Source: a virus. Taken from it: 64,000 bases of DNA. Below, in pieces: positions 588 to 55,081 of the stretch (the first letter of the stretch is position 1; every line of letters starts with the position of its first letter). The stretch lies in IMG/VR virus record IMGVR_UViG_3300045988_180190; one strand, 5' to 3'. The notes under the pieces were generated by a model. It saw only the letters and a program-made list of their open reading frames with translations. It had not been told where the DNA came from and did not search any database. A program made the translations under genes and the position numbers.

Positions 588-3500
588 CTACGAATTTCTT
601 ATGCACACAAACACGTGCCCCCATTGGCAGTCTCCGTCAAAGTCCGCGCCAAGTCCAGTGCTAACCAAAGGCGGAAGCAATATATTCTTGCCCTCATGAA
701 ATACAGGCTTAAACCCAAGCATATTATATTTATGCCAAGCTGGAGCTCTGTCAGACACTATCCATCTTCCCTTGTCCACAATTGACTGCATTACATTTTT
801 AGCCAAATCTGTTTTATTTTTTATATGCGTTAATGCTTCCTTTGGAGAAAAACCGCGCTTAACGAGCTCACCCTGAATATATGGAGCATACAGCTCTAAG
901 CCCATTTCGTAGGGTAGTCCAAGCTCATCCATAGATATCTCGGGATTAGCATCAATAACTCCTCTTGCGGAGAAGTCAACAGGTTTACTAATAATATTTC
1001 TATTCCACTGAGAAAATTTTGAAGTTCCCCCAATGATTTTCTGTAAAAATCCGGATACTCCCCTTTGCTTTAATTTTCTGCTATTAGGTTCACCGAAACC
1101 ATATAATGCCTTAAGTGATTTATAAACATTAATTGCATTTTTATTTGCCTCTTCATCACCCAACTCTTCTCGAATTTCTTTTTGTGTATGCGCAGTATTC
1201 AGCATATCCTGATAAAGTTCGTTTGCATCCCCTGGAAGAAATGTACTATCCCCCATAATGGCATAAGGTCTAAACTTAGGAGGTATCACTGGAACCTTAG
1301 ATATCATATATTCCTCTGGACTCATCTTATTTCTTTTTAATCCGTCCAAAGCTAAAATACGATTTAAAGCCTGTTGCTTCTTAGATTTAGGTCCATGACT
1401 AAAATCTTGTTTAGCCTGCTCTAGATCTCTATCTATATTTATATCCTTTAAAGCCTTATACAAAGCTTCTGTTCCAGTTCCGTATTTACGCAGTGTTTCA
1501 TTTCCTGTAATAATATCATTAAAGTCTTTTCTTGTTATACCAAGTAAAGAAATTATTGTGTCTTCAAATGCGGGATTTGGGTAATGCTTATCTAAAGTTA
1601 TTTTACCCCATTTATTAGCTACAGTTAATGTGGGATCAAATAATCCACCTTGCAGTGGACGCATGGTTTTAAAGTCCACAATGTTATCATTCTCAATTTC
1701 GATAGGATTAAATTTATCAAAATCTTTATCCGTGAACGGAGTAGCTTGAAGAGATTCTCCATTGTCAGCTCGCTTAGTATTAATTCCGGCACCTTGCATC
1801 AAGGCTATATATTTATCCCATATAAACGGAGATTTCCTAGCTAAAGTTGGTGTCTGCCCCATTCTTACTTGGCGCCAATAATCGTCATTACGCTGACCCC
1901 TTAATAAGATCGCATCTTTAATTACATTATATGCACCAGAAGATAGAAGAGCATTTACAGTTAAACCAGACATTCTTTTAGATCTCATACCCTCTTCTCC
2001 TCCCTTTACTGGAATCTCATTCTGGTCATAAATGCCTTGACCTCTTGAAGATAATTTTGAATCAGAGGTATGATGCAGCTTAAGAAAATAAGCATTGCCG
2101 ACTGTAATAGGTTGGTCTAATTCTCTATCAATAAGTGGATCATACACAGGCTCTGTATCTGATAAATTATTCTTTTTCAATTCACCCTCTACAAAGTCAT
2201 ACCATTTTTCTGTATTCTTATTGAATGTAGGCAATTTATATTTCTTTCCAGTCTTTTCCGCAACCTTACCAAGCATTGACTCATACATCATATTAGCATT
2301 AACACGTGATACAAGTCCTAGCTGATTAAATAACACATCCAAAGGTCTGCCATCTCTAGTTCTAGGCATATCTTTTTGCGGAATTATATGTGATACAGTT
2401 AACTTATTTCCGGAGCGAGTTGAATTGCCCGAGAATATAGGTTTATTGTGATATCTGGTAAGAATTATATGATATCTGCTATTTACTCCTATGCATACAA
2501 CGGGTCCATGATAATTCTTTAAGGTAAAGCATTTTTCTGTATCTAATTTAGTAAAACATACATCTTTGCCATTTGAATTAAGCAAGGTATCTTCACCGTT
2601 TATTTCACCGTTTATTTCACCGTTTATTCCACCGTTTATTCCACCGTTTATTTTACTGTTGATAGAAATAAATTGATTATCTACACATAATGTTAGCATT
2701 GCGGCAGGTAGTATATGCACTTCACCAGTATCTACGACAGGACATCTGTGATTACTTGTAACGAGTTGCGCCACATTATCATCTTCATATCCATATAAAT
2801 CCTCCCCAAGTAACATATATTTATGTATCTCAGTAACGTCATGCCAGTCCCACCTAATATCCTTTAAATCAGAAGCTACAATAAGTGAGGCAACCCTATC
2901 TCCTAATTTTACATTATTTATATTCTTCCATCCCTCTGAAGTAAGAATATCCGTATCCGGGTGATAGCACATCTTATCTCCCTCCCTCATTGGAGCAAAT
3001 GTTTCTACATTAACCTTATAGCCATCCTTAGTCTTTACTACATCTGTTACTACACCTGGAGTATCGTGATCCCAAACTTGAGAGGCATCGACTCTTGTGG
3101 ATTTTAAATACTTAGAGAGTTTACCTAGATTTGCATCATTTGCGGACACGGTCCTTGCTCTAGTAGAAAGAATCAATGGGTCACCAGGATTAACTGTGGA
3201 ACCAACTCTAATAATTCCATTATCATCCAAGTTAGCCATTTGCTCCTTCTTAAACTTGTCAGGATAAAATGTTTTAAAGTGCTCTTTTCCAGTTTTAAGC
3301 CCCTTATCGTTCTCCTCCATATATTGATACATATGTTGAGAAGTCATCCTATTAGCAAAATCCTCTGACACAACAACTGCGTCATCCATAGACCAACCTT
3401 TATAAGGAACAAATCCAACCCTTGCATTTAGCCCCATATTCAATGTGCCATTATCATCGGTAAAATTTGTTTTAGCCAATACTGGATTTCTCTTAGTTGA

Positions 3501-3983
3501 AGAGTCTCTAGATATTTTATCCCCAGGTTTGACTAAAGGATAATTGGTTAACATTGTTTTGCGATTAAAAGCAAAATTGTTATATAAATTTTTTACCTTG
3601 GTCTGACCTTTGTCATTTTTATACTTAATATAATCCGGAGAAACCTCCAGAATATCTGCAGAATTATCATCGTCATCTAAAGTTACAACACCTGTACGTT
3701 TTCCCATAAAATCCTCATAGGACTCATCTTTATCTGAATTTTTCAAGGACTGTACATTAGGGGATTCACCATTTTTAAGGGGCAATGCTTGAGTAACGAA
3801 TTTATGTTCGTAAAATCCCCTGGCTGCAGTTACAGAATTTTGCATGGGTAATAAATTTAATGTATTCCCAAAAAATTGATTGGGAGATACAAACTCATAC
3901 CTTACTTTATCCGTATCATCAGGTTCCTCAGTTATTACACCGCGTTTTAAAACAGGTATCATTTTATTATTTGATAAAGACAT
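588..3983 (-). CDS. multisubunit RNA polymerase, beta C-terminal half fused to beta-prime N-terminal part, intein-containing
   Basis: Beta motifs: LLPMQNSVTAARGFYEHKFVTQALPL (cf. FLEHDDANRALMG.NMQRQAVPL), GDKM[intein]STRSGNKL (cf. GDKMAGRHGNKG), GNAYFLKLHH. Beta-prime motifs: VPVIPPKFRP, KPVDFSARGVI, DRAPAWHKYN, GADFDGD. Confidence 0.9.
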   Translation of the reverse strand: MSLSNNKMIPVLKRGVITEEPDDTDKVRYEFVSPNQFFGNTLNLLPMQNSVTAARGFYEHKFVTQALPLKNGESPNVQSLKNSDKDESYEDFMGKRTGVVTLDDDDNSADILEVSPDYIKYKNDKGQTKVKNLYNNFAFNRKTMLTNYPLVKPGDKISRDSSTKRNPVLAKTNFTDDNGTLNMGLNARVGFVPYKGWSMDDAVVVSEDFANRMTSQHMYQYMEENDKGLKTGKEHFKTFYPDKFKKEQMANLDDNGIIRVGSTVNPGDPLILSTRARTVSANDANLGKLSKYLKSTRVDASQVWDHDTPGVVTDVVKTKDGYKVNVETFAPMREGDKMCYHPDTDILTSEGWKNINNVKLGDRVASLIVASDLKDIRWDWHDVTEIHKYMLLGEDLYGYEDDNVAQLVTSNHRCPVVDTGEVHILPAAMLTLCVDNQFISINSKINGGINGGINGEINGEINGEDTLLNSNGKDVCFTKLDTEKCFTLKNYHGPVVCIGVNSRYHIILTRYHNKPIFSGNSTRSGNKLTVSHIIPQKDMPRTRDGRPLDVLFNQLGLVSRVNANMMYESMLGKVAEKTGKKYKLPTFNKNTEKWYDFVEGELKKNNLSDTEPVYDPLIDRELDQPITVGNAYFLKLHHTSDSKLSSRGQGIYDQNEIPVKGGEEGMRSKRMSGLTVNALLSSGAYNVIKDAILLRGQRNDDYWRQVRMGQTPTLARKSPFIWDKYIALMQGAGINTKRADNGESLQATPFTDKDFDKFNPIEIENDNIVDFKTMRPLQGGLFDPTLTVANKWGKITLDKHYPNPAFEDTIISLLGITRKDFNDIITGNETLRKYGTGTEALYKALKDINIDRDLEQAKQDFSHGPKSKKQQALNRILALDGLKRNKMSPEEYMISKVPVIPPKFRPYAIMGDSTFLPGDANELYQDMLNTAHTQKEIREELGDEEANKNAINVYKSLKALYGFGEPNSRKLKQRGVSGFLQKIIGGTSKFSQWNRNIISKPVDFSARGVIDANPEISMDELGLPYEMGLELYAPYIQGELVKRGFSPKEALTHIKNKTDLAKNVMQSIVDKGRWIVSDRAPAWHKYNMLGFKPVFHEGKNILLPPLVSTGLGADFDGDCQWGHVFVCIRNS
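2424..2969 (-). mobile_element. mini-intein (182 aa) in the beta GDKM/RHGNKG motif
   Basis: Starts at Cys339 (CYHPDTDILTSEGWK). Block B is LVTSNHRCPV. Ends FSGN followed by Ser521. Removing it restores GDKM-STRSGNKL. Confidence 0.8.
2593..2652 (-). repeat. 5 x 12-nt tandem repeat encoding (ING[G/E])5 inside the intein
   Basis: tcaccgtttatt x3 then ccaccgtttatt x2 on the plus strand. Confidence 0.9.
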
Positions 3984-4042
3984 ATCAACATATTCAACTA
4001 TTTAGCCCCATAGTTCAAGCAATTTTATTAGATGTTATAGCT

Positions 4043-4082
4043 AAAAAAATACACAACCGGTGGATTTCCACCGATTGTGTAT
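4043..4082 (-). terminator. hairpin terminator (family 1)
   Basis: ATACACAACCGGTGG/CCACCGATTGTGTAT stem, then T7 on the minus strand, then AGCTATAAC. Confidence 0.75.
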
Positions 4083-4088
4083 TGCGAG

Positions 4089-4598
4089 CTATTTCCATTT
4101 TTGGGCTGTGAGCTCGATAATTTTCTTTACATTTCCTGGAAGTTGCCCGAACTTCAGGAAATCCTCTAGAGAGGAGGTACTGTATCCTAATGCAACCTCG
4201 ACCCCCCATACGGAGGATTTATAGATTGTCAACGTACGGGGGGCTAGCCCATGTATGACGACGTAGTCGTCGTTGGAGTTTATGTCTGCAAAACCACCAA
4301 CATAAAACTCTCCGCCTAGGTTGGCTTCTCCGCCGATGTGGGCATTATCGCCCACGCTTACGCTTCCGCCCACGTGGGCATTGCCGTTAACGACAGCATC
4401 GCCCTTTATTACGGCCGCGCCGTGTATCTTGGCGTTGCCTTGGATTAGGGCCCAATCTTCTACGCGTGCGTAAGCGGTGACGTACGCGTTTTCCCTGACC
4501 GTTGCGGATGGTCCGATGAAAGCGTCGTGATTGACGCTCGCATTCTCTAGTACTTTTCCCTCTATTACGGGATTTCCATATTTTACATGCTCGTTCAT
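4089..4598 (-). CDS. beta-helix (hexapeptide/bactofilin-like) repeat protein, cassette cargo
   Basis: Repetitive [VI]xGxAxVxG pattern (AKIHGAAVIKGDAVVNGNAHVGGSVSVGDNAHIGGEANLGG). Paralogue of 6716..7234. GC-rich. Confidence 0.7.
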   Translation of the reverse strand: MNEHVKYGNPVIEGKVLENASVNHDAFIGPSATVRENAYVTAYARVEDWALIQGNAKIHGAAVIKGDAVVNGNAHVGGSVSVGDNAHIGGEANLGGEFYVGGFADINSNDDYVVIHGLAPRTLTIYKSSVWGVEVALGYSTSSLEDFLKFGQLPGNVKKIIELTAQKWK

Positions 4599-4733
4599 AT
4601 CAGTAATCTATTTACCTACATCTAAATTTCCCATTTCGCACAGAATATGCGAAATGTCTAGTTGTAGATAAAATATTCCTTTCTAAATATATATACCACA
4701 ATTATATAAATATTTTCATGGGATGTTATAGCT
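4599..4733 (-). promoter_or_regulatory. cassette module A: extended -10-like TGGTATATA + leader stem-loop
   Basis: Conserved block repeated at five other sites. Stem-loop at 4632..4656. Confidence 0.6.
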
Positions 4734-4773
4734 AAAAAAATACACAACCGGTGGAAATCCACCGGTTGTGTAT
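4734..4773 (-). terminator. hairpin terminator (family 1)
   Basis: Near-identical to 4043..4082, with T7 on the minus strand. Confidence 0.75.
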
Positions 4774-4780
4774 TGTATGA

Positions 4781-5119
4781 CTAAAATTTCGCGTCGTGCA
4801 AATCAACGCTATCCAGGTTTACCCCTGCAAGGTTTGCGCCTTGCAGGTTGGTCCCTGTCAACTTTGCGCCCTTCAGGTTGGTCCCCGTTAACTTTGCGCC
4901 CCTCAGGTCAGCGCCTGAGAGGTCTGCATCTGTTAAGTCGGCCCTACTTAGGTCGGCCCCTATGAGGTTCACACCTCTGAGATTTGACTCCATCAAGAGA
5001 GCCAACTCGAGGTTGGCCCCCTCGAGGTCCGCACCCTCGAAGTTTGCCTCTGGTAGGATCACAAACCGCATGTCTGCATTCCTGAGATTTGCATTTTTAA
5101 AATTGAGCCTATTTTCCAT
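4781..5119 (-). CDS. pentapeptide-repeat protein
   Basis: A(D/N)LxG-type repeats throughout (ADLSRADLTDADLSGADLRGAKLTGTNLKGAKLTGTNLQGANLAGVNL). Confidence 0.85.
   Translation of the reverse strand: MENRLNFKNANLRNADMRFVILPEANFEGADLEGANLELALLMESNLRGVNLIGADLSRADLTDADLSGADLRGAKLTGTNLKGAKLTGTNLQGANLAGVNLDSVDLHDAKF
4844..4903 (-). repeat. 2 x 30-nt tandem duplication inside the pentapeptide gene
   Basis: caggttggtccctgtcaactttgcgccctt / caggttggtccccgttaactttgcgcccct. Confidence 0.85.
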
Positions 5120-5253
5120 AACTATAATCTATTTACCCACACCTAAATTTCCCTTCTTACACAGAATATGTAAGAAGTCTAGACATAGGTAAAATATCCT
5201 TTCTAAATATATATACCACAATTATATAAATATTTTCACGGGATGTTATGACT
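5120..5253 (-). promoter_or_regulatory. cassette module B
   Basis: Same conserved block. Stem-loop at 5153..5177. Confidence 0.6.
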
Positions 5254-5296
5254 AAAAAAACAAATCAAGGACCTATTCGAGGTCCTTGATTTGTTT
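5254..5296 (-). terminator. hairpin terminator
   Basis: CAAATCAAGGACC/GGTCCTTGATTTG stem overlapping the last codons of 5273..5644, followed by T7. Confidence 0.7.
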
Positions 5297-5644
5297 GTAC
5301 ACTTTATAAGTCTTTTGTAACTCATAAAGTGATCTATCCTCTTCTTCGCGGGCGCGTATGCGCCTGCCAAGAGATGAAAAATCGCACTCCCTATACATCC
5401 ACGCGGCCCTTCTGGACCCGGACTTAACGATTGTCTCAACCGGGAAGTTCGGTGGGAACTTAATCCCACTTTGCCCCAACTCATAGATACACTGGGAGAC
5501 CAGTGTATCTATCTTATTGGTGTGGTCCGTAAACACGGATAGGAACGAGAGGCTGAAGGCCTCTGCGTAGTTCTGAAGTCGAACTATAAGTTCTACTACA
5601 AGGTTGGACAAAAGAGAATTATATTTATTCGAGTCAATTTCCAT
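5273..5644 (-). CDS. hypothetical protein, cassette cargo
   Basis: 123-aa ORF bounded by module and terminator. No motif recognised. Confidence 0.6.
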   Translation of the reverse strand: MEIDSNKYNSLLSNLVVELIVRLQNYAEAFSLSFLSVFTDHTNKIDTLVSQCIYELGQSGIKFPPNFPVETIVKSGSRRAAWMYRECDFSSLGRRIRAREEEDRSLYELQKTYKVYKQIKDLE

Positions 5645-5776
5645 AATAAAAATTATATTAACTTCACCTATTTCCCATTTATAAACAGTTTATTTATAAA
5701 TGTATGTCAAAGTTAATATTCCTTTCTAAATATATATACCACAAGTATATAAATATTTTCATAGGATGTTATAATT
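5645..5776 (-). promoter_or_regulatory. cassette module C (diverged)
   Basis: Same architecture. AU-rich stem-loop at 5676..5702. Confidence 0.5.
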
Positions 5777-5813
5777 AAAAAAAAAGACCACCAGGGAATA
5801 ATCCCCAGTGGTC
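5777..5813 (-). terminator. hairpin terminator
   Basis: GACCACCAGGG/CCCCAGTGGTC stem followed by T9 on the minus strand. Confidence 0.7.
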
Positions 5814-5822
5814 TCGTGGAAC

Positions 5823-6158
5823 TTACTTGTACGTGAGCAAGTAAATCCCAAAACCATCTATCTTCGGAACAAACAGGACGACCTGTTTGACACGTATTCC
5901 GTTGACAGAGACCCCATTCTCCCAGGGGGTTTTTTTAACCGTGATTTTATTCTCACGGGGGAGAATATACCTTCCGCAAATAGCGCTTGCCATATGTGCG
6001 GCTCTTAATGAGCTGAACATTAGCATAGCACCATTACGGACTAGGCGCTTGAACCGCGCCTCCCCAAGCGGGGATATTTTTAATTCGCCCTCATAGAGGG
6101 ATATAGAATTCTTGTCGGTCACTATTATATTATCAATATTCATAATTGTTCCTTTCAT
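5823..6158 (-). CDS. hypothetical protein, cassette cargo
   Basis: The track ORF starts at 6185 inside the conserved ATGGGAAATTTAG module sequence. The internal Met (MKGTIMNID) at 6158 is the more likely start. Confidence 0.55.
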   Translation of the reverse strand: MKGTIMNIDNIIVTDKNSISLYEGELKISPLGEARFKRLVRNGAMLMFSSLRAAHMASAICGRYILPRENKITVKKTPWENGVSVNGIRVKQVVLFVPKIDGFGIYLLTYK

Positions 6159-6669
6159 TTGGAATTTTATTTCTAAATTTCCCATTTTATATGATTACAT
6201 AAAATGTCTAGAAATAATAAGCTAGCTTCTAATACAAGCTGAAGCTAGCTGGTGTGTAACCGTACAAGAATATAAAAGTGGCAAAGGAGAGAATTGCTCT
6301 CCTTCCCCACCCCTGAGGCATTGCCCCTTGGCAATCCTCAGGAGCCCCGCAATACACAACTTCAGCATAGGATAGCTGTCAGAGACACTCATGTCTAAGA
6401 GAGCCCTTTCCTTATATGTGCACACGGGGCAACCAACAACAGGTATTCCTCCCTGTTAGGTATTGTCCTGCTGGATACAATATACGGTCTCCAGAAGAAT
6501 ACCACCTCTTCTCCTAATTAGGAAAAGAGGTTTTCCTCTCCTTAAGGTACCAACCGCTTACCGCGATTGATACGCAGTTCGGAAAGGAATTTCCGTGAAG
6601 GATCTAAAATATCCTTTACTAAATATATATACCACAAAAGGTATATTTTTTTCATGTAGTGTTATAGCT
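6159..6669 (-). promoter_or_regulatory. cassette module D, split by an insertion of about 400 nt
   Basis: Promoter-proximal part at about 6600..6669. Stem-loop at 6183..6206. Foreign sequence lies between them. Confidence 0.55.
6207..6600 (-). ncRNA. candidate structured RNA / leader element, class unknown
   Basis: Chain of strong hairpins (e.g. CCTGAGGATTGCC-aagg-GGCAATGCCTCAGG, AAGGAGAG-caatt-CTCTCCTT, AGCTAGCTTC...GAAGCTAGCT). G-U pairs favour the minus strand. No credible ORF. Confidence 0.35.
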
Positions 6670-6709
6670 AAAAAAATACGCAACCGGTGGAAATCCACCG
6701 GTTGCGTAT
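6670..6709 (-). terminator. hairpin terminator (family 1)
   Basis: Same as 4734..4773 but with a compensatory A-T to G-C pair (ATACGCAACC/GGTTGCGTAT). Confidence 0.75.
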
Positions 6710-6715
6710 TGTGGG

Positions 6716-7234
6716 CTATTCTTGCCATTTTTTGGCAATGGCCCTAACTACTTCCCTTACGCTCTGGGGGAAGTCCCCAAAGTGTAAGAAAGTTTGTAGG
6801 GCCTGCGACGTACCCTCCGTCGCAACCTCAATGCCCCAGGTCGAGGATTTGTAAACCGCCAGGGGACACGGGGTCAACCCCTGGACGATGACTATGTCAT
6901 CGTTGGAGTTTATGTCGGCGTTTCCGCCGATAAAGCCCACACCACGTAGGAGGGCGTTCCCACCTATGTGGGCGTTTCCTCCTATTACCATATGGCCGCC
7001 TATAACGGCGTTACCATCTATGACGGCATCGCCCCTGAGCGACGCTGACTCACAGACCTCGGCGTTCCCGCCGACGATAGCCCTGTCTTCCAGGGTCGCG
7101 TCGTCCCATATAGACGCGTTGCCCTGGACGACGACCTGTTGCCCCACGTAAGCGTCATGATTGACGCTCGCGTCGTCTTTTATTGTTCCCTCAATAAGAG
7201 GGCAGCCGTACATAATGTGTTTATTGTTATCCAT
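6716..7234 (-). CDS. beta-helix repeat protein, paralogue of 4089..4598
   Basis: Alignable over its full length (GGNADINSNDDIVIVQGLTPCPLAVYKSSTWGIEVA vs GGFADINSNDDYVVIHGLAPRTLTIYKSSVWGVEVA). Confidence 0.7.
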   Translation of the reverse strand: MDNNKHIMYGCPLIEGTIKDDASVNHDAYVGQQVVVQGNASIWDDATLEDRAIVGGNAEVCESASLRGDAVIDGNAVIGGHMVIGGNAHIGGNALLRGVGFIGGNADINSNDDIVIVQGLTPCPLAVYKSSTWGIEVATEGTSQALQTFLHFGDFPQSVREVVRAIAKKWQE

Positions 7235-7368
7235 AACTATAATCTATTTACCTACACCTAAATTTCCCTTCTTACACAGAATATGTAAGAAGTCTAGTTG
7301 TAGATAAAATATCCTTTCTAAATATATATACCACAATTATCCGTATTTTTTCACAGGATGCTATAGCT
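7235..7368 (-). promoter_or_regulatory. cassette module E
   Basis: Same conserved block. Stem-loop at 7268..7292. Confidence 0.6.
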
Positions 7369-7396
7369 AAAAAAAAGAGAAGACCACAGTCTTCTC
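7369..7396 (-). terminator. hairpin terminator (family 2)
   Basis: GAGAAGAC-caca-GTCTTCTC followed by T8 on the minus strand. Confidence 0.7.
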
Positions 7397-7453
7397 TTCG
7401 CTATAACTAAACTGACATCTCCAACGGTTAAAACTCATTGGGTTCTAAGGTAT

Positions 7454-8041
7454 TTAATCCTTAAGTCGTAATTGTAGCTTCATTTCGGGGAACCTTTCTA
7501 ACAATTTCTTATACAAAAATAAAGAAGGTCTATTCTCTTTGTTAACTGTATATGCGTTCATATCAAACTTGTCTCCTTCTTCTAATAAGCTTTTTATCAT
7601 TGCTTTTTCTGCTAAACCTTTACCTCTAAATTCGGGAAGCACTCCTATAGAATAATAAGCTACACGTTTATTTTCGGGATTGGTTCTTACTTGCACACCT
7701 CTAAATCCTGCTGGGGCTCCTGTTTCTTCATCTTTTATAATTTCTAAAACATCGTCATTCCCATTATATCGCTCTTTATATAGTCCATGAGGAAAATAAC
7801 GTTTATTCTCTTCATAGATTCGAGATAAAATTTTATCAAGATCTCTTTGAACACCCTCAATATCCGTCGAACGTATTGATCCCTTTTTCTCTATATTGCC
7901 AGTTTCTTGTTTCCGCTTGTCTTTTCTTAGTCTAGAGAATAAGCGTAGTAGTCCAGGGGTAGCATATGAGGAATTTTCACTTTTTTTAGTTGATGCTTCT
8001 TTTTTTAATTGAAACTTAGAAATTAGTTGATCAATTGTCAT
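7454..8041 (-). CDS. GNAT-family N-acetyltransferase
   Basis: Motif A-like YYSIGVLPEFRGKGLAEKAM (R/Q-x-x-G-x-G/A). Confidence 0.6.
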   Translation of the reverse strand: MTIDQLISKFQLKKEASTKKSENSSYATPGLLRLFSRLRKDKRKQETGNIEKKGSIRSTDIEGVQRDLDKILSRIYEENKRYFPHGLYKERYNGNDDVLEIIKDEETGAPAGFRGVQVRTNPENKRVAYYSIGVLPEFRGKGLAEKAMIKSLLEEGDKFDMNAYTVNKENRPSLFLYKKLLERFPEMKLQLRLKD

Positions 8042-8210
8042 AATTTTAGAAATTTTTATTTATCAATATTAGTTGCGTTATATTGTCTGTCAACAAAGTT
8101 AATTTCCCTTCTTACGCAGAATATGCAAGAAGTCTAGTTATAGGTAAAATTCTCCTTTCTAGTTGCATATACCACTTTTATCTGTATTTTTTCACAAAGG
8201 TGTCATAGAT
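8042..8210 (-). promoter_or_regulatory. cassette module F (diverged)
   Basis: Same block. Stem-loop at 8108..8132. Confidence 0.5.
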
Positions 8211-8237
8211 AAAAAAAGAGAAGACTGTGGTCTTCTC
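8211..8237 (-). terminator. hairpin terminator (family 2)
   Basis: GAGAAGAC-tgtg-GTCTTCTC followed by T7. Same stem as 7369..7396 with an inverted loop. Confidence 0.7.
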
Positions 8238-8396
8238 TTCGCTATGACTATGTCAACTACTCACTAGACGAGCTAGTGAGCTTGTAACTAGGTATTACTA
8301 CCTGCTACAATAGGCTTGTTGGCGGAAGCCCTAAATTCCTCGCAATAGACAAGCTATTGCATATCCTTTCGGGATTTTAAATGAATAAAAATTAAA

Positions 8397-8753
8397 TTAG
8401 CCTCTTAAATTTGTATTTGTAATTAGTCTAGAATCAAGTTTTGCATATGGGCAATTAAATGCCGAGGATTCTATTTTTTTAAATATCACTTTATCTTTCT
8501 TATCAACTTCTTTATTGTCAGAAATTATTGATTCTGACTTAGATGACTCAGAGATTATATCATCATTATCATCCATTATCTCCTTAACTTCTTCTTTTAA
8601 TTCTTTAACTTCTTCTGGTGTAACTTGTTGCACAACTGTATATGGAGCGCCTTCGACCTCCACAAACGAGTTATCCAAATCCGTAACTTCATTGTGTTCT
8701 GATACTTGCGTATATTGAGTCTGTTTGGTTTGTGTATTTTTGCTTTTACTCAT
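8397..8753 (-). CDS. acidic hypothetical protein
   Basis: 118-aa ORF rich in D/E/S. Confidence 0.5.
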   Translation of the reverse strand: MSKSKNTQTKQTQYTQVSEHNEVTDLDNSFVEVEGAPYTVVQQVTPEEVKELKEEVKEIMDDNDDIISESSKSESIISDNKEVDKKDKVIFKKIESSAFNCPYAKLDSRLITNTNLRG

Positions 8754-18510: not shown

Positions 18511-18532
18511 ATTTCCCTTTTTTTAGTTATAG

Positions 18533-18946
18533 TTACTTTGAAAATCCATAGTAGTCGTCTTCGGTACCGAGGTCCAAATTACGCATATTTGTAAAATCTA
18601 GCTCTTCCTCCGGGTCTAGCTTAGCCAATACATCATCTTCAAATACAAGAAATAAAGATTTACCCTGATCTGATACGAATGTTACCTTGTTATTCACAGA
18701 TAAAATTCTATCCCCAACGGATATTCCTAATTCTTTTCCATTTACATTATCAGGAATTTCCACTACGACTCCAGATATCGGAGTATCATTTTTTATCGAA
18801 GGGTTGCTAAACGAATTAAATAAATCCGTTATAACATCACCACTCTCACTTACTTTATCCTTTAATACTAATATCCTTCCATTTGCATGCACACTTGGTA
18901 CATAAGAATGTAAGGCATCCTTATCAATAATAATTTTTTCTGGCAT
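18533..18946 (-). CDS. hypothetical protein, weakly GroES-like
   Basis: ANGRILVLK...SGVVVEIP...VGDRILS...DDVLAKL. Confidence 0.3.
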   Translation of the reverse strand: MPEKIIIDKDALHSYVPSVHANGRILVLKDKVSESGDVITDLFNSFSNPSIKNDTPISGVVVEIPDNVNGKELGISVGDRILSVNNKVTFVSDQGKSLFLVFEDDVLAKLDPEEELDFTNMRNLDLGTEDDYYGFSK

Positions 18947-40336: not shown

Positions 40337-43300
40337 TTACTTAATTTGGTATTTCTGGCAAGCGTTTTTTAGTCCAATTTGTAATTCATGTTTTTCTTCT
40401 TCCGAAGGAGCTGTGCTCCAACGCTTTGTGACTTCAACTTCAATATTATATCGTAATCTGCCTCCTTTCAAATCCCAATAATTGTTATCCGACATAAAAA
40501 ATTTAAGCATACTGCTAGCGAGATCTACTTCCTCATAGGGTGCTAAAATGTAAATAGCGTCATATAACGGTATCACCGCCCTACTTTTCATATGCAACCT
40601 CATGAAACAAGCATTTAATGCAGGTATAGCTCTTGCTAGTGAATCAGCAACCAATGACTGAAGCCCTATATTACAAGCTTCTCTACGTAACTTACTAACA
40701 ATACTTTCCCTTAGATCATCTGACATTTGAGCATCCAGAGGGGGAACTTTGAAATGGCGTTTAAAACCTGAGGGAGACAAATAATACCCCTGTCCCTCTG
40801 GGAGAGTTTTGCACCAATCTAAATATTCTTTTACCTGTGGCTTGGTATTCATATAACCGTCAATAACTTTTTGCCCGGTACCAGGTTCTGGTTTTTCTCC
40901 AGCGGCAATCTCAATTTTTCTCTCCAGCAATGAGGGGCTTGCACCATAAGGTATAGAGTTATGTGACAAAAGGGTCATATCTATATACTTATGTGTATCA
41001 CACTCAATAGCTATTACGTCATATGAAGGAATCAGTTCTTTCGAGACTACTTTAATTATAGCTACAGTTTCCCCTAAGAAGAAATGATCTAAATAAGTTA
41101 ATGACAACTTATGATCACCCTCTAAAGTTGTGCACCAGCCTATCGTAGATGCTAAGACTGCTAAATCGGATAGTAGATCATCGTTAGGAGACTCTAAGCT
41201 TTGTTCCCCTTCCTTAAACAATTTGCAAATGATTTCACTTCTTATGGTTGGGTCACACACAAATAACTCGCAAGGAAGTCTATACGACATGTTACTAGAG
41301 TTACTAATAATATCATTCACGAAATAATCTACGTCATGACTTACATTAACATCCTTTTTCCCGAATGGAATATTAAAGCTAAAAGAAAGAACGTCGGCAC
41401 CTATGCTTAAATCTTCCACCTTTTCCCATTTCTCATAATGGCTGTCTCTACCATCACGTGAAACCCTCAGTTTATGGTCGCTCTTAAATGTAGCTACCAC
41501 ACCATTACTAAAGCGCACCTTATAGCATTCTTGATCCTTTAACCTTACAACATTAAGTACTCTTGTGGCATCAAACGGAGATTTTAAATAGTCTCCTACT
41601 TGAATAGTGTTAGCCTTAACATATCCACCCTTAGATATAGAATAAATATAATTTTCTTCTCCAGAGCAGAAATTAGCGGTTTTGCCTATAGCATTACGTG
41701 TTTTACGCTTATCGAGTTTTTCCCGTGGAGTATTTAAAACATATTTATTCTCTACGGCTGTCCAATGAACATCCTGTAGCGGATGTTTCAGGGTTCCATC
41801 TTTATTACGTACCAAATCTGGGTCATTAGGATCTGTAAGCAATGCTGGGTCTTTCGCATCTTCTGTGAATTCCACTATGTCATCACAGTATGCTATACGC
41901 ACTTGCTTAATACTCCCATCCGGCATTTTCTTGAACGCAAATTGAGGATCAGGGTCATTCAGTGTAGCAATCAATTTTTTGTCATTTGCTAAATATGCGA
42001 TCGTGAATACCTCCGCTGTGGCGTAGTCGGCATCAACAAAACAATAACCTTCTGGGGCTTTGAAACACCATCTTAAAGGTACAGGAACCAAATCCTTAAT
42101 TGTTATATTCTCTTTTATATTATAAGTACTTTTCAGAGAATCAACAATACTCCTAAAATTATCTTGGTCGTAGTTTGAAGTGTCAGATATATCTTCTACA
42201 TTAAGAAACTTTAAAACTTTCTTAAATCCATGACTAATATAGTCGGAAACGTCACTTGGAACATTTAATATATTTGGTTTAAACGACCGTGGTCTACTCG
42301 ATTCGGTCATAACAAAGTTGGAATGCAGCCTTCCATCCGAAGTTAAATACTTTTGCAATCCACCGTCTTCCCCCTTCAAGAAACTTTTTGTAACTTGGTT
42401 TATAGCATTTAGTTGTAATAAATGCAAACATAAGTCATCCCCTTTATCAGAAAATATCTTTAACGTATCTTTATCCACTGCAGGAGAATATTTCTTTTGT
42501 TTAGCCGGGGGCATTTTTAAGACTCTCTCCCAGGGAATGGCATTTCCTTCTTGGGGTTTTGTAGTCTTGATCGGCGTGTACTTTTTTATGTCAAATAGCC
42601 AACGCTTTTTATGATCCGCAGAATTAGGATTAAAAGAATCTATTGTGTAATAATGCTCGAGATAAGGTAGGATAGGCAAGGCATTGCGTTTATACAAGCG
42701 TTTCAAAAGATTAAATATATCTTCCAAACTTCTACCTTCTTCAAAATATCTTTGTATTTCTGCAATATTAGCGATAGGGGTTTCTTGAGCTATCTTAGAG
42801 ACTTCAGTATAAAATAAGTCATGCGCCTCTTTTTTAATCATCATCATAAATAGCTTCTGCATTATAAGACCTGCAGCGAGATAAGCTATTCTAGCTTTAT
42901 TAGCATCCTCTGCGCAAAATGGTACCCCCGCTATAGACATAGAGGTAAATCCATCAATCACAAACGGCAATTTTATATTCATAAAATAGTCATAAGTGCC
43001 GTCCCTTATTAGCATGTCTTTTATAATTGGATATAATCTAAAGGTCACATCTGCGTCAGAACATCCGTAAGGAAACAAAATACTCAATGGAATTTGACCA
43101 TATCCTTGTTCCTCGTCAAAAGACACTCCTTTATTAGATTTTTTCCAAAGAATCAGCTCAATGTCATATCTACCTTTATCTGTATACTTTGCTGCCAGTT
43201 TCTCCAATTTTTGATCCGCATATTCGTCTACAGTTTGTATGCCAAACATTGTATCAAAAATAAACTTTCCATTATACACCTCTAAACCTAAATGTGTAAG

Positions 43301-44266
43301 CATCCACTGTGCGTCAGCTGCACCATTATGCCCTATATAATGAATATCAGGAGAATTAAAGAAACTCTGTAAAAGTTCACAGACCTGTTCCTTGGTAGCG
43401 TCAAACACCCATTCCCCTTGCTCATTATTGAGATTAATATATGCAGCCTGACCCGGAGCCCAAGCAAATTGGATTGATCTAAGATACCCATCCACAAAGC
43501 ACTGCTTGCCCCACTCACAGTCCACACTGAATAATTTATAATTATTGGATTTAAAGTACTCTATTAACTTCTTAAGGTGATCAAATGTTGACACACATTG
43601 GTAGTCGCAAGGTATTTGTTGTATCGTTGTTCCTTGGAGGAAGTGATCGTAAAAATTTGCTAAGATACGAATATCTTGATTAAGTTTATCATACAACTCA
43701 GGCTTATAATAAGCTTTATAGATACTACTAATTACAAAAACATGTGCATTATACTTCTCACTAAAAAACCAAGCTTCTTCGAGTTTAGACACACTTATTT
43801 TATAATTTAAAATAAAATCGCAAGCTTCTGCCCCAACACAGACGATTATCTTTGGATTACAATACCGCATCTCTTCCTCAAGGAGAGGTAAGCAATAATT
43901 TATATCTTTTTTAATACCCTTTAAAACAGACTGATTTAACCCATACTTCACCACAGAAGTAAAATAACAGTCGTCCAGGTCAATGCCGTTTTGAAGGCAT
44001 AAAGACCTAAACATTTCCCCTGCTCCAGATTTTAAATGCATGGGCGCAGAATATCTTGAGTCAATATCTTCCTTCAAAGGCGCCGGAACTAAAAACATTA
44101 TATCTGCCCCAAGTCTACCAACACCATTAAGAAATACTACATTATCATTTTCAGGAGAAGTATCATCTTTTATTCTTTTAAGTGATAGATCACCACAAAA
44201 GTCCGATAAGCTTGGACAAGGTAACTCCATGTTTACCTTGGGAAAATTAATTTCAGTTTCTTTCAT
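40337..44266 (-). CDS. family A DNA polymerase with N-terminal UDG-like domain and 3'-5' exonuclease, intein-containing
   Basis: Exo I VDCEW, Exo II HNGAADAQW, Exo III YGCSDAD. Motif A VDADYATAEV. Motif B RNAIGKTANF[intein]SIPYGAS. Confidence 0.9.
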   Translation of the reverse strand: MKETEINFPKVNMELPCPSLSDFCGDLSLKRIKDDTSPENDNVVFLNGVGRLGADIMFLVPAPLKEDIDSRYSAPMHLKSGAGEMFRSLCLQNGIDLDDCYFTSVVKYGLNQSVLKGIKKDINYCLPLLEEEMRYCNPKIIVCVGAEACDFILNYKISVSKLEEAWFFSEKYNAHVFVISSIYKAYYKPELYDKLNQDIRILANFYDHFLQGTTIQQIPCDYQCVSTFDHLKKLIEYFKSNNYKLFSVDCEWGKQCFVDGYLRSIQFAWAPGQAAYINLNNEQGEWVFDATKEQVCELLQSFFNSPDIHYIGHNGAADAQWMLTHLGLEVYNGKFIFDTMFGIQTVDEYADQKLEKLAAKYTDKGRYDIELILWKKSNKGVSFDEEQGYGQIPLSILFPYGCSDADVTFRLYPIIKDMLIRDGTYDYFMNIKLPFVIDGFTSMSIAGVPFCAEDANKARIAYLAAGLIMQKLFMMMIKKEAHDLFYTEVSKIAQETPIANIAEIQRYFEEGRSLEDIFNLLKRLYKRNALPILPYLEHYYTIDSFNPNSADHKKRWLFDIKKYTPIKTTKPQEGNAIPWERVLKMPPAKQKKYSPAVDKDTLKIFSDKGDDLCLHLLQLNAINQVTKSFLKGEDGGLQKYLTSDGRLHSNFVMTESSRPRSFKPNILNVPSDVSDYISHGFKKVLKFLNVEDISDTSNYDQDNFRSIVDSLKSTYNIKENITIKDLVPVPLRWCFKAPEGYCFVDADYATAEVFTIAYLANDKKLIATLNDPDPQFAFKKMPDGSIKQVRIAYCDDIVEFTEDAKDPALLTDPNDPDLVRNKDGTLKHPLQDVHWTAVENKYVLNTPREKLDKRKTRNAIGKTANFCSGEENYIYSISKGGYVKANTIQVGDYLKSPFDATRVLNVVRLKDQECYKVRFSNGVVATFKSDHKLRVSRDGRDSHYEKWEKVEDLSIGADVLSFSFNIPFGKKDVNVSHDVDYFVNDIISNSSNMSYRLPCELFVCDPTIRSEIICKLFKEGEQSLESPNDDLLSDLAVLASTIGWCTTLEGDHKLSLTYLDHFFLGETVAIIKVVSKELIPSYDVIAIECDTHKYIDMTLLSHNSIPYGASPSLLERKIEIAAGEKPEPGTGQKVIDGYMNTKPQVKEYLDWCKTLPEGQGYYLSPSGFKRHFKVPPLDAQMSDDLRESIVSKLRREACNIGLQSLVADSLARAIPALNACFMRLHMKSRAVIPLYDAIYILAPYEEVDLASSMLKFFMSDNNYWDLKGGRLRYNIEVEVTKRWSTAPSEEEKHELQIGLKNACQKYQIK
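40958..41668 (-). mobile_element. intein (237 aa) in PolA motif B
   Basis: Starts at Cys867 after KTANF. Block B is FKSDHKLRV. Ends LLSHN followed by Ser1104. Confidence 0.8.
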
Positions 44267-44324: not shown

Positions 44325-47300
44325 TTATCCACAAGCGGACCACCCGCAGCTATAACATTTTTTACAACCCTCTTCTCGCAGGACTTTACCCCCACAGACG
44401 GGACAGGTCTCTCCCAAGTCTAACTTACCAGCGCATTGTAACAACACCTTGTTTATAGCTTTTACAATCGATGTGAAATCTCCTTCAGTTTTAGATAGCT
44501 GATGTATAATTTCTTTTAATGATACACCAGATTGAAGATTCAAAGCTACCAGTCTTGCCAAGGCTGTAAGCGTTGCCTTATCCGAGGACTCATTTGTTTT
44601 AACTATTTTGTAATGGAATTTGCCGTCCTTAGAGGTAAACTCAAATGTAGCTTTAGCTATTTTTCTTAATGTTCCCTCCTTGACGTGTTTAGGTATAATC
44701 CTACGGCGTTCAACCCATTCTCCTTCGTCATCAAATATATTATCCTCATTTATATCTATAAACATCTCAAAGGGGCAATCTCCAAGAAAGCTTACTATAA
44801 AGTAGTAGGATACTCCTTTGACTGTTCTAAAGAATACCCTACAAGGCAAAACGTCTGGACGTTTATCAGCAGTTATTGTTGGGTGGATAATAGAAGTAGA
44901 AGTTGGATTTACGTCTTCTTTAGCATCTGTAGACTGTAAGACGGCACTCATTGAGCCTTCTCTGTAGGTAGTAACCCCTTTAATTACTCCGCTATTATAT
45001 GCGTCTAAATAAACGTTCTTAAACTGTTCATAAGGATAGTCCTTACCGACATTTATCGTTTTACTTACAGCGGAATCCAAATGCGCAGATACGAGTTTCA
45101 GAATTTCCAGATGAGATTCAACAGGCAATTGCATAGCTGTTGTGAAAACTTCCTGTGGATATTCTAAATTATGATCCTTAATCCATTGATAGGCATAATC
45201 TCTTATGAGCACCTTCTTGCAAAGACCTCTATCCTTATGTATCTGATACTCTACGCCATCTTCTCCTGTGTAAGTTAGATACGTGAAGTCAGCATATTTA
45301 GCTTCTTTAAAGTACGCATTAGGTTTAAAGTCTCCCTCCCAGAATCTAGGGCATTTATCTCTTAGAAAATCTGGAATATTAGGCATTCCTACGATGCGGT
45401 AGTACTCTAGTTGAAATACAGGTTCTACGCCTCCTGAAATATTATTTGCCAAACAACCAGTATTTCCCGTGGGCTGGACTGAGAACAAGGCTGAATTGCG
45501 AATGCCGTTAGTTTCTAACAATTCTTTTTGCAAAGCATCCAATATATACTTCGGCAGATGTCTAAACGTATATTTTATATTATCAGCATGTTTTGCAGGA
45601 TTACATCCTTTAAACGCACCTTTACATTTAGCTAAAGCAATGCTTGCCCTTATCCCTAAGAAATTATAAACATCAAAAACTTTAGTTAAAAAGTCTTTAG
45701 CTTCCGTAGAATCATATTTTAAACCCAACATCATTAAGGCAGAACCTATGCCTGTAATGCCAAGTCCGATTCTTCGATAGCTTTCAGCCATATATTTATA
45801 TTCTTTCAAAGGCAGATTCGCAATGTCTATGACATTATCCAAGAATCTTACGCAATAAGGAATAATATCGGAAAACTTCTGAAAATTAAAAACAGCAGCG
45901 TGTTTGATTTCATCATATTCTATAAATGCTGTGAGATTGATGGATCCTAAATTGCAGCATCCTCCGCTGTATAAAACCTGCTCTCCGCACTGCTGATTAT
46001 TAAGCATATAAAATTTTGGATGTCCATGTTCGTTCACAGTTTCAAACATCCCAACGCAATAATTATGCACATCATCAACTGTACCGGTATAGACATCTTG
46101 TTTGCCTATATATTCAATAGACACAATTCTATGATTAAAATCAACAGCCTGCGTCTTTAAATCCGCGTAAGAACGGAAAGCAGAAATCGGACCAAATCTA
46201 TGAGGAATCTTATTTTGTTTGCAATAAGAATCAAACTCACATTTAAATGGATCTCTTGACAGAGCAAATTTTAAATCCGTATAAGCTTTAAGTTGTCTTA
46301 TTCTATTCTCACCTTTTGTCTTAGAAGCATAGTTTGAAATTCCCTGTCGCAAATGCTGTATGTAATTTTCCTGCTTAAGTTTGTTACGATTCACACAGAG
46401 ATTTGAACAAAAAGCTACTTCCCTGCTTTGGAAAGGTGTAAAGAACTCTTTACCACAATTTTCACAAATCTTTTTTACTAAAACTCTATTATTAACAATC
46501 TTTGTTTCATAACCTTGTGATACGGCATTTAGATATGTTCTTTGCAACCTACTATCACATTTCATTAAATCATTATAAACACCTAAAGCTTTAGCAGCAT
46601 ATTTACAAATATCACGAATACCTCCGCCTCCAAAAAACTTGACACGATAATCATCATTAAATGACTGTAATACGTGAAAACCTCTAGAAGCTAACTCATC
46701 TTGTAATTCTTTTACAGAGAAGAATCTTTGATATTTTAAAATTAAATCTTTCGCAATATCTAAAAGTATCTCATTAGAAACACCTTTATAATTCTTATTC
46801 TTTTCTCCAAATGAAGCATTTTTTTGCTTCTCTTTATAGGAATCCCACTTTGCCTTAGTCCACTCTGTAGCGGCACGACACATAGGATTAGTCTTTCCAA
46901 ACATACGCTTACAATGTAAAGCATCATGCGCAGCTTTTGACATAACTTCTAAATTATCTAAAGAATTATTTAATCCGTTATAATCCTTATGATGCACAAC
47001 TTCTGCATTAGTGAGTCTTCTACCTATAACATATTCAGCATTAATGCGATGTAATGCCTTGCGAGACTTTTTTCCGGAAGTCTTTATCCAAGCATATAGT
47101 TGAGAATTACTCGATCTATTAAAGATTTCATTAAACTTCTGGTATGAAATAGAAGCAACATACAAAGATTCTCCTGGGGACATATCTTTTACCTCTTTAT
47201 ATGTACCATCGGATAATCTAAACTTATGATTAGACGTGCAATCAATATGATTACCATCATCTAAAGTCACTCGATAAATATCTTTATTATAGCCTGTAAT

Positions 47301-49834: not shown

Positions 49835-49992
49835 AGCTTCTATATTTTCTGGTTATAGCTATTATTGTGGTGAGTTTATTTACACGTAGTTTTCATAGGT
49901 AGTGTTCTTTCTTTTACGTTTTTAGTTGAATTGTATCTAAAAAATCTCTCGTTTATGCAGAAATCGTTTACGATTTCAGCATAAACTTATTA

Positions 49993-55038: not shown

Positions 55039-55081
55039 CTCCTTTGAGTTATAGCTAAAAAAAATATGAATAAAGTGAAGT

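Follow-up and report, generated by a model that had tools for sequence, protein, structure and literature searches.

A probable hotspot of gene-cassette exchange next to the RNA polymerase gene of an uncultured human-gut phage

How does a phage come to carry a run of small, mostly unrelated genes that are all introduced by the same kind of non-coding module? This question is raised by a stretch of 64,000 nucleotides from the IMG/VR virus record IMGVR_UViG_3300045988_180190 (here called the window), which derives from an uncultured phage of about 170 kb. Positions 3984-8260 of the window hold six units on the minus strand; in each, a cargo gene stands between a promoter-like box with a structured leader and a predicted intrinsic terminator. 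Comparison with related phages suggests that this region is probably a hyperplastic hotspot between the gene of an acidic protein and the gene of an RNA polymerase (RNAP), where tandem autonomous cassettes ('morons') are exchanged via the modules they share.

Six cassettes built on a shared module

All features of the array lie on the minus strand. Starting from the side of the acidic-protein gene, cassette 1 carries a GNAT acetyltransferase (7454-8041; 195 aa, Pfam Acetyltransf_1), which is the sole AT-rich cargo with a GC content at third codon positions (GC3) of 0.22. It is followed by the hexapeptide-repeat protein LbHb in cassette 2 (6716-7234; 172 aa, GC3 0.64), the ORFan unk4 in cassette 3 (5823-6143; 106 aa with a conserved start MNI.., always downstream of a structured RNA), the ORFan unk3 in cassette 4 (5273-5644; 123 aa, GC3 0.55), the pentapeptide-repeat protein PRP in cassette 5 (4781-5119; 112 aa, Pfam Pentapeptide with E = 4e-36, GC3 0.62) and the hexapeptide-repeat (left-handed beta-helix) protein LbHa in cassette 6 (4089-4598; 169 aa, Pfam Hexapep, GC3 0.55). 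The cargo products thus range from 106 to 195 aa, two of them being ORFans. An alignment of relatives places the start of unk4 most likely at 6143, not at 6158 or 6185. Pfam confirmed the cargo identities given in an earlier note on this DNA, that is, two beta-helix paralogues as the single duplicated pair, a pentapeptide-repeat protein, two proteins without family and a GNAT.

Within the 64-kb window, the units match only one another. They share families of direct repeats, one of 98 nt with six members, one of 86 nt with four and one of 50 nt with six, and a 24-nt core (CCTTTCTAAATATATATACCACAA on the plus strand) that is identical in four copies and shows 92% and 75% identity, respectively, in the other two. 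The sequence TGTGGTATATA occurs exactly five times in the window, always within the array; with up to one mismatch, there are seven matches compared to 1.8 expected, and none of 100 shuffles reached this number. An nhmmer profile built from the six modules, which themselves have a GC content of only about 25-30%, recovered all six copies that the earlier note had proposed (4592-4744, 5113-5262, 5639-5787, 6567-6680 plus 6145-6222, 7228-7378 and 8067-8221) and no further copy in the 64-kb window.

Module M1 (4599-4733) displays the full architecture, with a AGCTATAAC box, the GTGAAAA.. / TGGTATATAT core at 4678-4701, AGAAAGGA and a leader hairpin at 4607-4676 (nhmmer 131 bits; 96.4 bits with the leader covariance model (CM) R1; fold z = -5.8). 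M2 (5120-5253; leader hairpin 5128-5197, CM 92.8 bits) is 90% identical over 149 nt to M5 (7235-7368; leader hairpin 7243-7312, nhmmer 136 bits, CM 96.4 bits, z = -4.2). The leader hairpin of M3 (5645-5776; hairpin 5653-5721, z = -4.4, CM 33.5 bits) has the usual architecture built from wholly different helix sequences. M6 (8042-8210; CM 43.2 bits) has a longer leader and a position-specific 5' part, which is seen after the acidic gene in every array; its leader (8082-8152) has retained the inner hairpin, while the outer helix is degenerate (z = -1.1). The earlier note had also described a single module at 6159-6669. A module is indeed present there, but it is an ordinary one that is split by a structured RNA of about 386 nt: the 5' half of this module M4 (6605-6669) holds the AGCTATAAC box and the promoter-like core (6614-6637), and the 3' half (6166-6218) holds the leader hairpin TTATTTCTAGAC..GGGAAATTTAGAAATAA before unk4 (z = -3.7, CM 38.5 bits). 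The truncated copy claimed for 4031-4049 was found as well; this junction box before the RNAP leader (4031-4050) consists of a T-run and AGCTATAACATC, and it also occurs at this position in relatives whose site is empty. The leader box given as TCTAGA had to be corrected, as the conserved box is CTAGAC.

Seven minus-strand intrinsic terminators were predicted exactly at the cassette ends, that is, at the 3' ends of the cargos and of the upstream flanking gene. Altogether, the region contains 15 terminator-like sites on both strands compared to 4.0 +/- 2.3 expected. Three of the terminators, those of cassette 6 (4048-4083; GGTGGAAATCCACC family, a 16-bp stem and then a T-run), cassette 5 (4739-4774) and cassette 2 (6675-6710), are near-identical, and the third bears a compensatory change from A-T to G-C (ACACAACC..GGTTGTGT vs ACGCAACC..GGTTGCGT). 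The terminators of cassette 1 (7374-7399) and of the upstream acidic-protein gene (8215-8240), the latter marking the left array boundary, have a common stem with an inverted loop (CTGTGG vs CCACAG). The near-identical trio, the compensated pair and the inverted loop had all been pointed out before. The remaining two terminators, of cassette 4 (5258-5296, overlapping the stop codon) and cassette 3 (5784-5815), were identified in the same terminator scan. Such loop flips recur between genomes and between copies while the stems stay unchanged (CTGTGG/CCACAG, CTGTAG/CTACAG and AAA/TTT); they occur at 7374-7399, 8215-8240, 4048-4083 and 4739-4774 in the window and in the related loci L001, L003, L023, L024, L031, L032, L035 and L037. 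This pattern suggests that these perfect palindromes repeatedly undergo template switching or hairpin-mediated inversion.

Variation of the site among related phages

Related loci were gathered from IMG/VR, JGI/ENA and Logan assemblies, which gave twenty-odd contigs; the relatives are contigs of 164-174 kb from human-gut metagenomes. The acidic-protein gene and the RNAP gene border the site in every genome, and between them it holds zero to six cassettes. It is empty in seven loci, occupied by one cassette in about seven, and filled with two to six in the remainder. At the empty site (L005, L006, L009, L014, L015, L018 and L019), only a terminator, TTTATTTTTTAGCTATAACACC and the RNAP leader are found. 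As genomes with an empty site exist, the cassettes are dispensable. At least 12 configurations occur among genomes whose RNAP N-termini are at least 99% identical. Since the N-terminal 400 aa of the RNAP are 99-100% identical across the clade-1 relatives that carry these different arrays, the array turns over far faster than the backbone.

In the window, the array reads GNAT, LbHb, RNA-unk4 (unk4 with its structured RNA), unk3, PRP112 and LbHa, PRP112 being the 112-aa version of PRP and PRP102 that of 102 aa. L001 and L021 have GNAT, RNA-unk4 and PRP112. L023 has LbHb, a B116-like cassette, RNA-unk4, unk3 and PRP102, and L037 has LbHb, the B116-like cassette, RNA-unk4 and an unk3 allele of 32% identity. 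LbHb, RNA-unk4 and PRP102 are present in L035, GNAT, RNA-unk4, unk3 and possibly more in L024 and L025, where the contigs end, and unk3 and PRP102 in L032. L027 begins at its contig start with RNA-unk4 and continues with PRP102, L003 and L012 have PRP102 alone, and L038, likewise from the contig start, has LbHa. In the more distant clade 2, with an RNAP of about 80% aa identity, a single cassette was found, which is LbH in L004 and L017, GNAT in L007 and an unk3 allele of 42% identity in L008. Presence or absence of cassettes thus varies at exactly this site, as the earlier note would have it; the order polymorphism expected along with it was found in no array. Throughout, the cassettes follow one series (GNAT, LbHb, B116-like, RNA-unk4, unk3, PRP, LbHa), of which every array is a sub-series.

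The junctions between differing arrays lie inside the shared repeats. Between the window and L001, one breakpoint maps to the promoter half of the module with an overlap of 71 nt, the next extends across a whole module with a fusion at TTATGGAAA, and the last falls into the shared terminator and AGCTATAAC with an overlap of 61 nt. The first module after the acidic gene has a position-specific 5' half (ATCTATGACACCTTTGTGAAAAAATACAGATA..) regardless of its cargo, whereas the leader type tracks the cargo. Crossovers therefore take place around the invariant core TGTGGTATATATATTTAGAAAGG. One cassette has also crossed between lineages: the GNAT cassette of the window is 95.8% identical at the nucleotide level to that of clade-2 L007, although identity is only about 77% for the RNAP genes, and the flanks either show about 77% identity as well or cannot be aligned. 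This shared block is bounded by the promoter edge on one side and the T-run/AGCTATAGC box on the other. Moreover, L028-L031 carry modules together with the RNA-unk4 cassette and a truncated form of the GNAT cassette next to an unrelated gene of 1059 aa, with small GC-rich cargos behind them; no relative of this L028-type neighbour was found in IMG/VR. The clade transfer of GNAT, the second genomic context in L028-L031 and alleles of 32-80% identity on 99% identical backbones indicate gain of cassettes and not only loss.

These findings support the proposal of a recombination-driven hyperplastic region made in the earlier note, as well as its comparison with promoter-early-stem-loop shuffling in T4-like phages. 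Accounting for them, each cassette would comprise, in this order, a T-run and AGCTATAAC box, a GTGAAAA..N..TGGTATATAT core, a 5' leader folding into a 26-bp hairpin with a GGAAA bulge, a short A/U-rich spacer with the ATG, a small cargo gene and a terminator. The module of about 130 nt and the related terminators would provide every cassette with portable homology, and general homologous recombination between modules, within one genome or between co-infecting relatives, would delete, swap or transfer whole cassettes and leave their neighbours undisturbed. The RecA-like protein of the phage (37258-38766) is a candidate catalyst. The module itself would act as an early promoter read by the host or phage polymerase.

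Leader hairpin, promoter signals and a large structured RNA

The leader folds into a bulged hairpin of 26 bp. Its outer helix of 10 bp is followed by a CUAGA/UUUAG helix of 5 bp, a GGAAA bulge of 5 nt on the 3' side and an inner helix of 11-12 bp with a small loop. The fold z-scores range from -3.7 to -6.5, with the degenerate GNAT leader as the exception. In an alignment of 13 different type-A leaders, pairing is seen in 98.8% of 338 cells, compared to 31-55% with slid partners; six pairs are changed on both sides, and the covariation score is 0.253 compared to 0.150 in shuffles (0/500). Covariation was counted only on these 13 leaders, because MAFFT gave no alignment of the M3 and M4 types with them. 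The latter were assessed from individual folds, which showed that the unk3-type (M3) and unk4-type (M4) leaders retain the architecture with completely different helix sequences. The CM scores amount to 87-96 bits in sense and 20-38 bits in antisense direction, and G-U pairs are invariant or frequent. Both the G-U pairs and this asymmetry point to selection on RNA and not on a DNA cruciform, and the covariation shows that this hairpin is under selection as a sense-strand RNA.

In the window, the CM identified only the six leaders, and otherwise it matched only this phage group. Five IMG/VR matches to CTAGAC-N20-26-GGGAAATTTAG outside the group are chance, as CM R1 finds nothing in them. A K-turn reading of the GGAAA bulge was ruled out, the bulged strand being without the required GA after a 3-nt loop. 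For AGAAAGGA, an upstream mini-ORF or a 'split Shine-Dalgarno' is a possible reading, in a phage in which most genes have no Shine-Dalgarno sequence. We infer that the hairpin may subject all cargos to the same post-transcriptional handling: it could stabilise the 5' end, serve as an RNase III-type site, or act as an insulator or as a translational operator shared by the cassettes. As an insulator, it would prevent occlusion of the A/U-rich start region by foreign GC-rich coding sequence.

Within the module, conservation is strongest along G(T/C)GAAAAAAT, about 12 nt, G-TATATAT and then AGAAAGGA. In the window clade, this stretch includes a -35-like GTGAAA, an 18-nt spacer and TGgTATATA. A further motif, TAGCTATAAC, also occurs outside the array. 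Two exact copies (49852-49861 and 55048-55057) are located 15-25 nt ahead of start codons, a near-copy (TAACTATAAC) is present at 18526-18535 on the minus strand, and a scan for (T-run)TAGCTATAAC gave 24 matches with up to one mismatch compared to 6.6 +/- 2.7 expected. As this motif is found genome-wide and stands alone before the RNAP gene at empty sites, the T-run with TAGCTATAAC may be a promoter of the phage's own polymerase, and each module may contain two promoters. Taken further, the modules would be promoters for the phage multisubunit RNAP with the T-run and AGCTATAAC box as key element, and the cargos would be middle-class and not host-dependent early genes. The genomic copies of the motif and the box that alone precedes both the RNAP gene at empty sites and an 86-aa cargo in L028 and L031 speak for such a role. 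Yet conservation peaks at TATATAT, a core sequence that follows the box at a distance of about 40 nt, and first modules of clade 2 have kept their GTGAAAAAAT..GGTATATAT core without an intact AGCTATAAC box. We therefore regard phage-RNAP promoters as a tentative explanation. The TATATAT core and the AGCTATAAC box may both be active, which is compatible with cassette exchange.

The RNA that splits M4 is a predicted large structured non-coding RNA of 386 nt (6219-6604, minus strand), inserted in the leader of cassette 3. It has a minimum free energy of -197 kcal/mol and a fold z-score of -10.1. The element precedes unk4 in every relative with unk4 (L001, L021-L031, L035 and L037), which amounts to more than 12 loci in both genomic contexts. 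Copies of the relatives are 62-63 nt longer (about 450 nt), and only the window copy is shortened by a deletion between 7-nt GGTTGCC repeats, through which a hairpin and one strand of the domain-closing helix were lost. As the helix-closing segment is lost, the deleted domain may be dispensable. Among seven genomes, the RNA is 93.5-99.2% identical compared to a mean of 90.4% for the adjacent unk4 coding sequence (CDS). The share of variable columns is 7% within helices and 21% elsewhere (Fisher p = 2.4e-5). A 169-pair consensus has 99.1% of cells paired and four pairs with compensatory changes, for close relatives only and with the structure derived from the same sequences. In L023 and L024, the unk4 coding sequences are identical, while the RNAs are 95% identical. 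A coding function was ruled out by indels of 62 and 10 nt and because the only ATG-initiated ORF lacks its start codon in L024 and L031. At Rfam gathering thresholds, no match was obtained in the array, and permissive settings with the window copy and the full-length L023 copy gave only sub-threshold chance matches; ARAGORN detected no tRNA or tmRNA. The element is probably a new RNA family.

Cassette 3 might accordingly be viewed as a separate RNA-protein system, in which the RNA of about 386-450 nt would be the active product (a decoy, an anti-defence RNA or a ribozyme) and unk4 its partner. The constant linkage to unk4 in two contexts, the conservation beyond that of the CDS, the z-score of about -10, the helices depleted of variation and the lack of an Rfam family would fit such a system. 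On the other hand, covariation is thin (4 of 169 pairs, close relatives only), the window copy does without the helix-closing segment of a possibly dispensable domain, and unk4 gives no functional clue: its AlphaFold2 model, based on a 10-sequence alignment, reached a pLDDT of 45.7 and is unusable, and no remote homologues were found. The RNA could instead be a long cis-regulatory 5' untranslated region (UTR). An RNA-protein system is thus conceivable, and we rate it somewhat below an even chance.

Competing explanations, known systems and surroundings

Could the array be a static regulon instead, whose modules are merely the standard early promoter and 5' UTR, with the differences between genomes due to deletions between the repeats of a long ancestral array? 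The strictly collinear order in all arrays and the hybrid modules, which deletion between direct repeats would explain, are in line with this idea, and so is the deletion between GGTTGCC repeats in the RNA of the window. Pure loss does not fit a GNAT cassette that is 95.8% identical across clades between flanks of about 77% or beyond alignment, the same cassettes next to the unrelated 1059-aa gene in L028-L031, alleles of 32-80% aa identity on 99% identical backbones, or the mosaicism of L023 and L024 with identical unk4 CDS and 95% identical RNA. We therefore consider a static regulon unlikely. An integron-like capture, in which the hairpins act like attC for a dedicated recombinase inserting at the T-run/AGCTATAAC site, would explain why hairpins with a conserved bulge are conserved in structure and not in sequence, why all insertions occur at one site flanked by a T-run and AGCTATAAC-like repeats, and why terminator loops flip as if inverted repeats were processed as hairpins at the DNA level. 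However, no integrase or recombinase is present among the Pfam-annotated genes of the 16-21-kb neighbourhoods, every cassette has its own promoter, crossovers fall into at least three zones, and the G-U pairs and strand asymmetry reflect selection at the RNA level. The order is collinear and not one of acquisition, which fits exchange by flanking homology and argues against insertion at one end. Capture of this kind is very improbable.

Cassette exchange through shared modules remains the reading we prefer, and several points weigh against it. Since the genes follow one another in the same order in all arrays, losses from a longer array in an ancestor could account for much of the diversity, and the model leaves unexplained how a new cargo is joined to a module. 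The hairpin is not obligatory, since the B116-like cassette has the promoter and no leader hairpin, and a cassette for an 86-aa predicted membrane protein (L028 6932-7192, L030 and L031) is preceded only by a AGCTATGG..CATAGCT hairpin, with the AGCTAT box as its sole module element. Promoter, start site and termination are predictions at the level of consensus sequences. The TG of the extended -10 element proposed in the earlier note is present in the window clade and lost in the more distant clade 2. A sigma-70 scan yielded 20 sites compared to 14.5 +/- 4.1 expected, which is no enrichment with a consensus that may not be that of the host, and it favours an alternative ATAACA-N17-TATAAT pair in M1 and M2. 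Finally, the cassettes are known from assemblies alone, which cannot show mini-circles of the kind described below.

In T4-type phages, recombination between promoter-early-stem-loop (PeSL) motifs has been proposed to drive cassette shuffling (Arbiol et al. 2010, PMC2839356; Comeau et al. 2014, PMC4122927), and recombination between neighbouring motifs yields circular cassette DNAs, as assayed by inverse PCR (PMC2839356). The array resembles this system in that a composite motif of terminator, promoter and start of the next ORF, here with a predicted terminator and a promoter-like core, is repeated between small non-essential ORFans of a hyperplastic region, endpoints of indels and replacements between close relatives lie inside the motifs, and cassettes are transcriptionally insulated, which is a prediction here. 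In contrast to PeSL, the array belongs to an unrelated lineage, a gut phage with a multisubunit RNAP, and its motif is unrelated in sequence, with neither the T4-type early promoter nor the GGGG..CCCC stem. All its copies form one tandem array at a single site, whereas PeSLs are scattered over several hyperplastic regions; an extra covarying 26-bp hairpin is placed in the 5' UTR, whereas the PeSL stem-loop is the upstream terminator; and the GC3 of the cargos differs strikingly from that of the genome. As both phage and motif differ, the array is an analogue and not a homologue of PeSL.

Morons, known from lambdoid and other phages, have been described as a promoter, one gene and a terminator between genes that are adjacent in related phages, with a composition unlike that of their neighbours (PMC4378225). 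The cassettes conform to this with a single gene of deviant composition, a predicted promoter and terminator of its own and a position between otherwise adjacent genes. Morons are usually solitary with unrelated promoters, whereas here up to six share one conserved module. With integrons, the array has in common tandem, small, unrelated and exchangeable genes at one site and boundary elements conserved more in structure than in sequence; it differs by the absence of integrase Pfam matches from the neighbourhoods and of an attI/attC organisation, by the cassettes' own promoters, by several crossover positions and by a hairpin selected as RNA.

Early mRNAs of phages can carry 5' hairpins that are processed by RNase III or stabilising, as in the R sites of T7 and the N leader of lambda. 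The leader resembles these in being long and near-perfect (about 26 bp), with an asymmetric internal bulge, in the leader of putative early genes and with a structure kept while the sequence varies. The conserved GGAAA bulge and the CUAGAC/UUUAG helix are without known counterpart. The modules could form a standardised expression platform, a GGAAA-bulge hairpin regulon for takeover or anti-defence genes together with a new class of about 450-nt phage RNA with an ORFan partner, for example for counter-defence or as a decoy; this remains speculative.

If cassettes are exchanged as proposed, shuffling in the style of PeSLs and morons would extend from cultured T4-like coliphages to an uncultured lineage of RNAP-encoding gut phages of about 170 kb. 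The site offers a clean natural experiment, with 0-6 cassettes in at least 12 arrangements at one position of near-identical backbones. Beyond the earlier note, the comparison adds an RNA-level leader element distinct from the PeSL terminator stem-loop, a compositional dichotomy and a structured RNA tied to an ORFan. The portable module of promoter, leader and terminator includes a candidate element for processing, stability or translation and is possibly an expression part for gut bacteria. The beta-helix pair, the Qnr/MfpA-like pentapeptide protein, GNAT, the B116-like protein, the ORFans and the small membrane protein are candidates for host-takeover and anti-defence screens.

With the exception of GNAT, the five cargos have a GC content of 0.42-0.55 and a GC3 of 0.48-0.64; among the remaining 51 ORFs of the window with 100 aa or more, GC3 is 0.22-0.37, bar one at 0.47 (59955-60455). 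This deviant composition is retained across alleles that are only about 75% identical in DNA (L004 vs window), so that it is not merely due to very recent import. LbHa and LbHb are 48% identical to each other. LbHa alleles of 62-67% identity are present in L004, L017 and L038, and homologues of LbHb are confined to this phage group, with alleles of 74-80% identity. The PDB relatives of PRP include the DNA mimics Qnr and MfpA; PRP alleles in relatives have 102 aa and are 61-73% identical. For unk3, no match was found in Pfam, PHROG or GenBank phages (tblastn included), its homologues make up only two clusters among 5.8 billion proteins, and its alleles are 32-97% identical at the aa level across relatives (42% in L008, 32% in L037). 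A tblastn search of unk4 against GenBank phages gave no match, and a profile search of 1.84 billion representatives retrieved only its own cluster. Cargo families outside the window comprise the B116-like cargo, a 125-aa protein with a faint STIV_B116-like match (L023 2096-2473, L037 7666-8043), and GC-rich ORFs of 56-62 aa. Many unrelated cargos start with ATGGA(A/T)AA (Met-Glu/Asp-Lys/Asn..), for example at 5119, 5644 and 7234 in the window, L003 9583, L023 2096 and L028 6632; either module similarity extends a few codons into the genes, or the first codons are under selection. PADLOC gave no match for eight cargos. Near the hotspot lie genes for a Lar-type restriction-alleviation protein and an MT-A70 methylase, in one relative also a Mom-domain gene, and from this context it is plausible that the cargos are host-interaction or anti-defence genes.

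On the right, the hotspot is flanked by the RNAP gene (588-3983, minus strand), which encodes 1131 aa with fused beta/beta'-like domains (Pfam RNA_pol_Rpb2_6, Rpb1_1 and Rpb1_2), and on the left by the acidic-protein gene (8397-8753, minus strand; 118 aa), which adjoins it in all relatives. The array had no DNA match to GenBank phages by megablast, and the RNAP-encoding backbone has only 26-30% aa matches among other phages. Most genes of the window phage are without a Shine-Dalgarno sequence; from this scarcity, the host may be a member of the Bacteroidota, with promoters unlike the E. coli consensus. A search of GTDB genomes for RNAP relatives as a host clue found none. The neighbourhood of the RNAP gene is variable on both sides, since a LAGLIDADG homing-endonuclease gene lies directly downstream of it in L035 (9168-10724) and L037 (13176-14498) and the RNAP ORF is longer (1344 aa) in L007 and L008. 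A few hundred bases past the end of the RNAP gene, the Rfam abiF RNA motif matches positions 167-204 of the minus strand with 43.4 bits compared to a gathering threshold of 37. The remaining genes of the window include a helicase and the RecA-like ATPase mentioned above, a ribonucleotide reductase large subunit split by an intein with an HNH domain (44325-48467, minus strand) and a family-A DNA polymerase with an N-terminal domain of the uracil-DNA glycosylase (UDG) superfamily (40337-44266, minus strand).

Between the acidic-protein gene and the array, the window contains a structured insert of 134 bp (8252-8385, minus strand; fold z = -4.3) that L001, the closest relative, does not have. The 85 nt at the 3' end of this insert match sequences elsewhere in relatives with 80-91% identity, and in L032 the match falls on the 3' end of a TnpB (OrfB_IS605/Cas12f-like) gene and the region downstream of it. 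The insert looks like a solo IS605-family end or an omega-RNA-like remnant that moved around these genomes.

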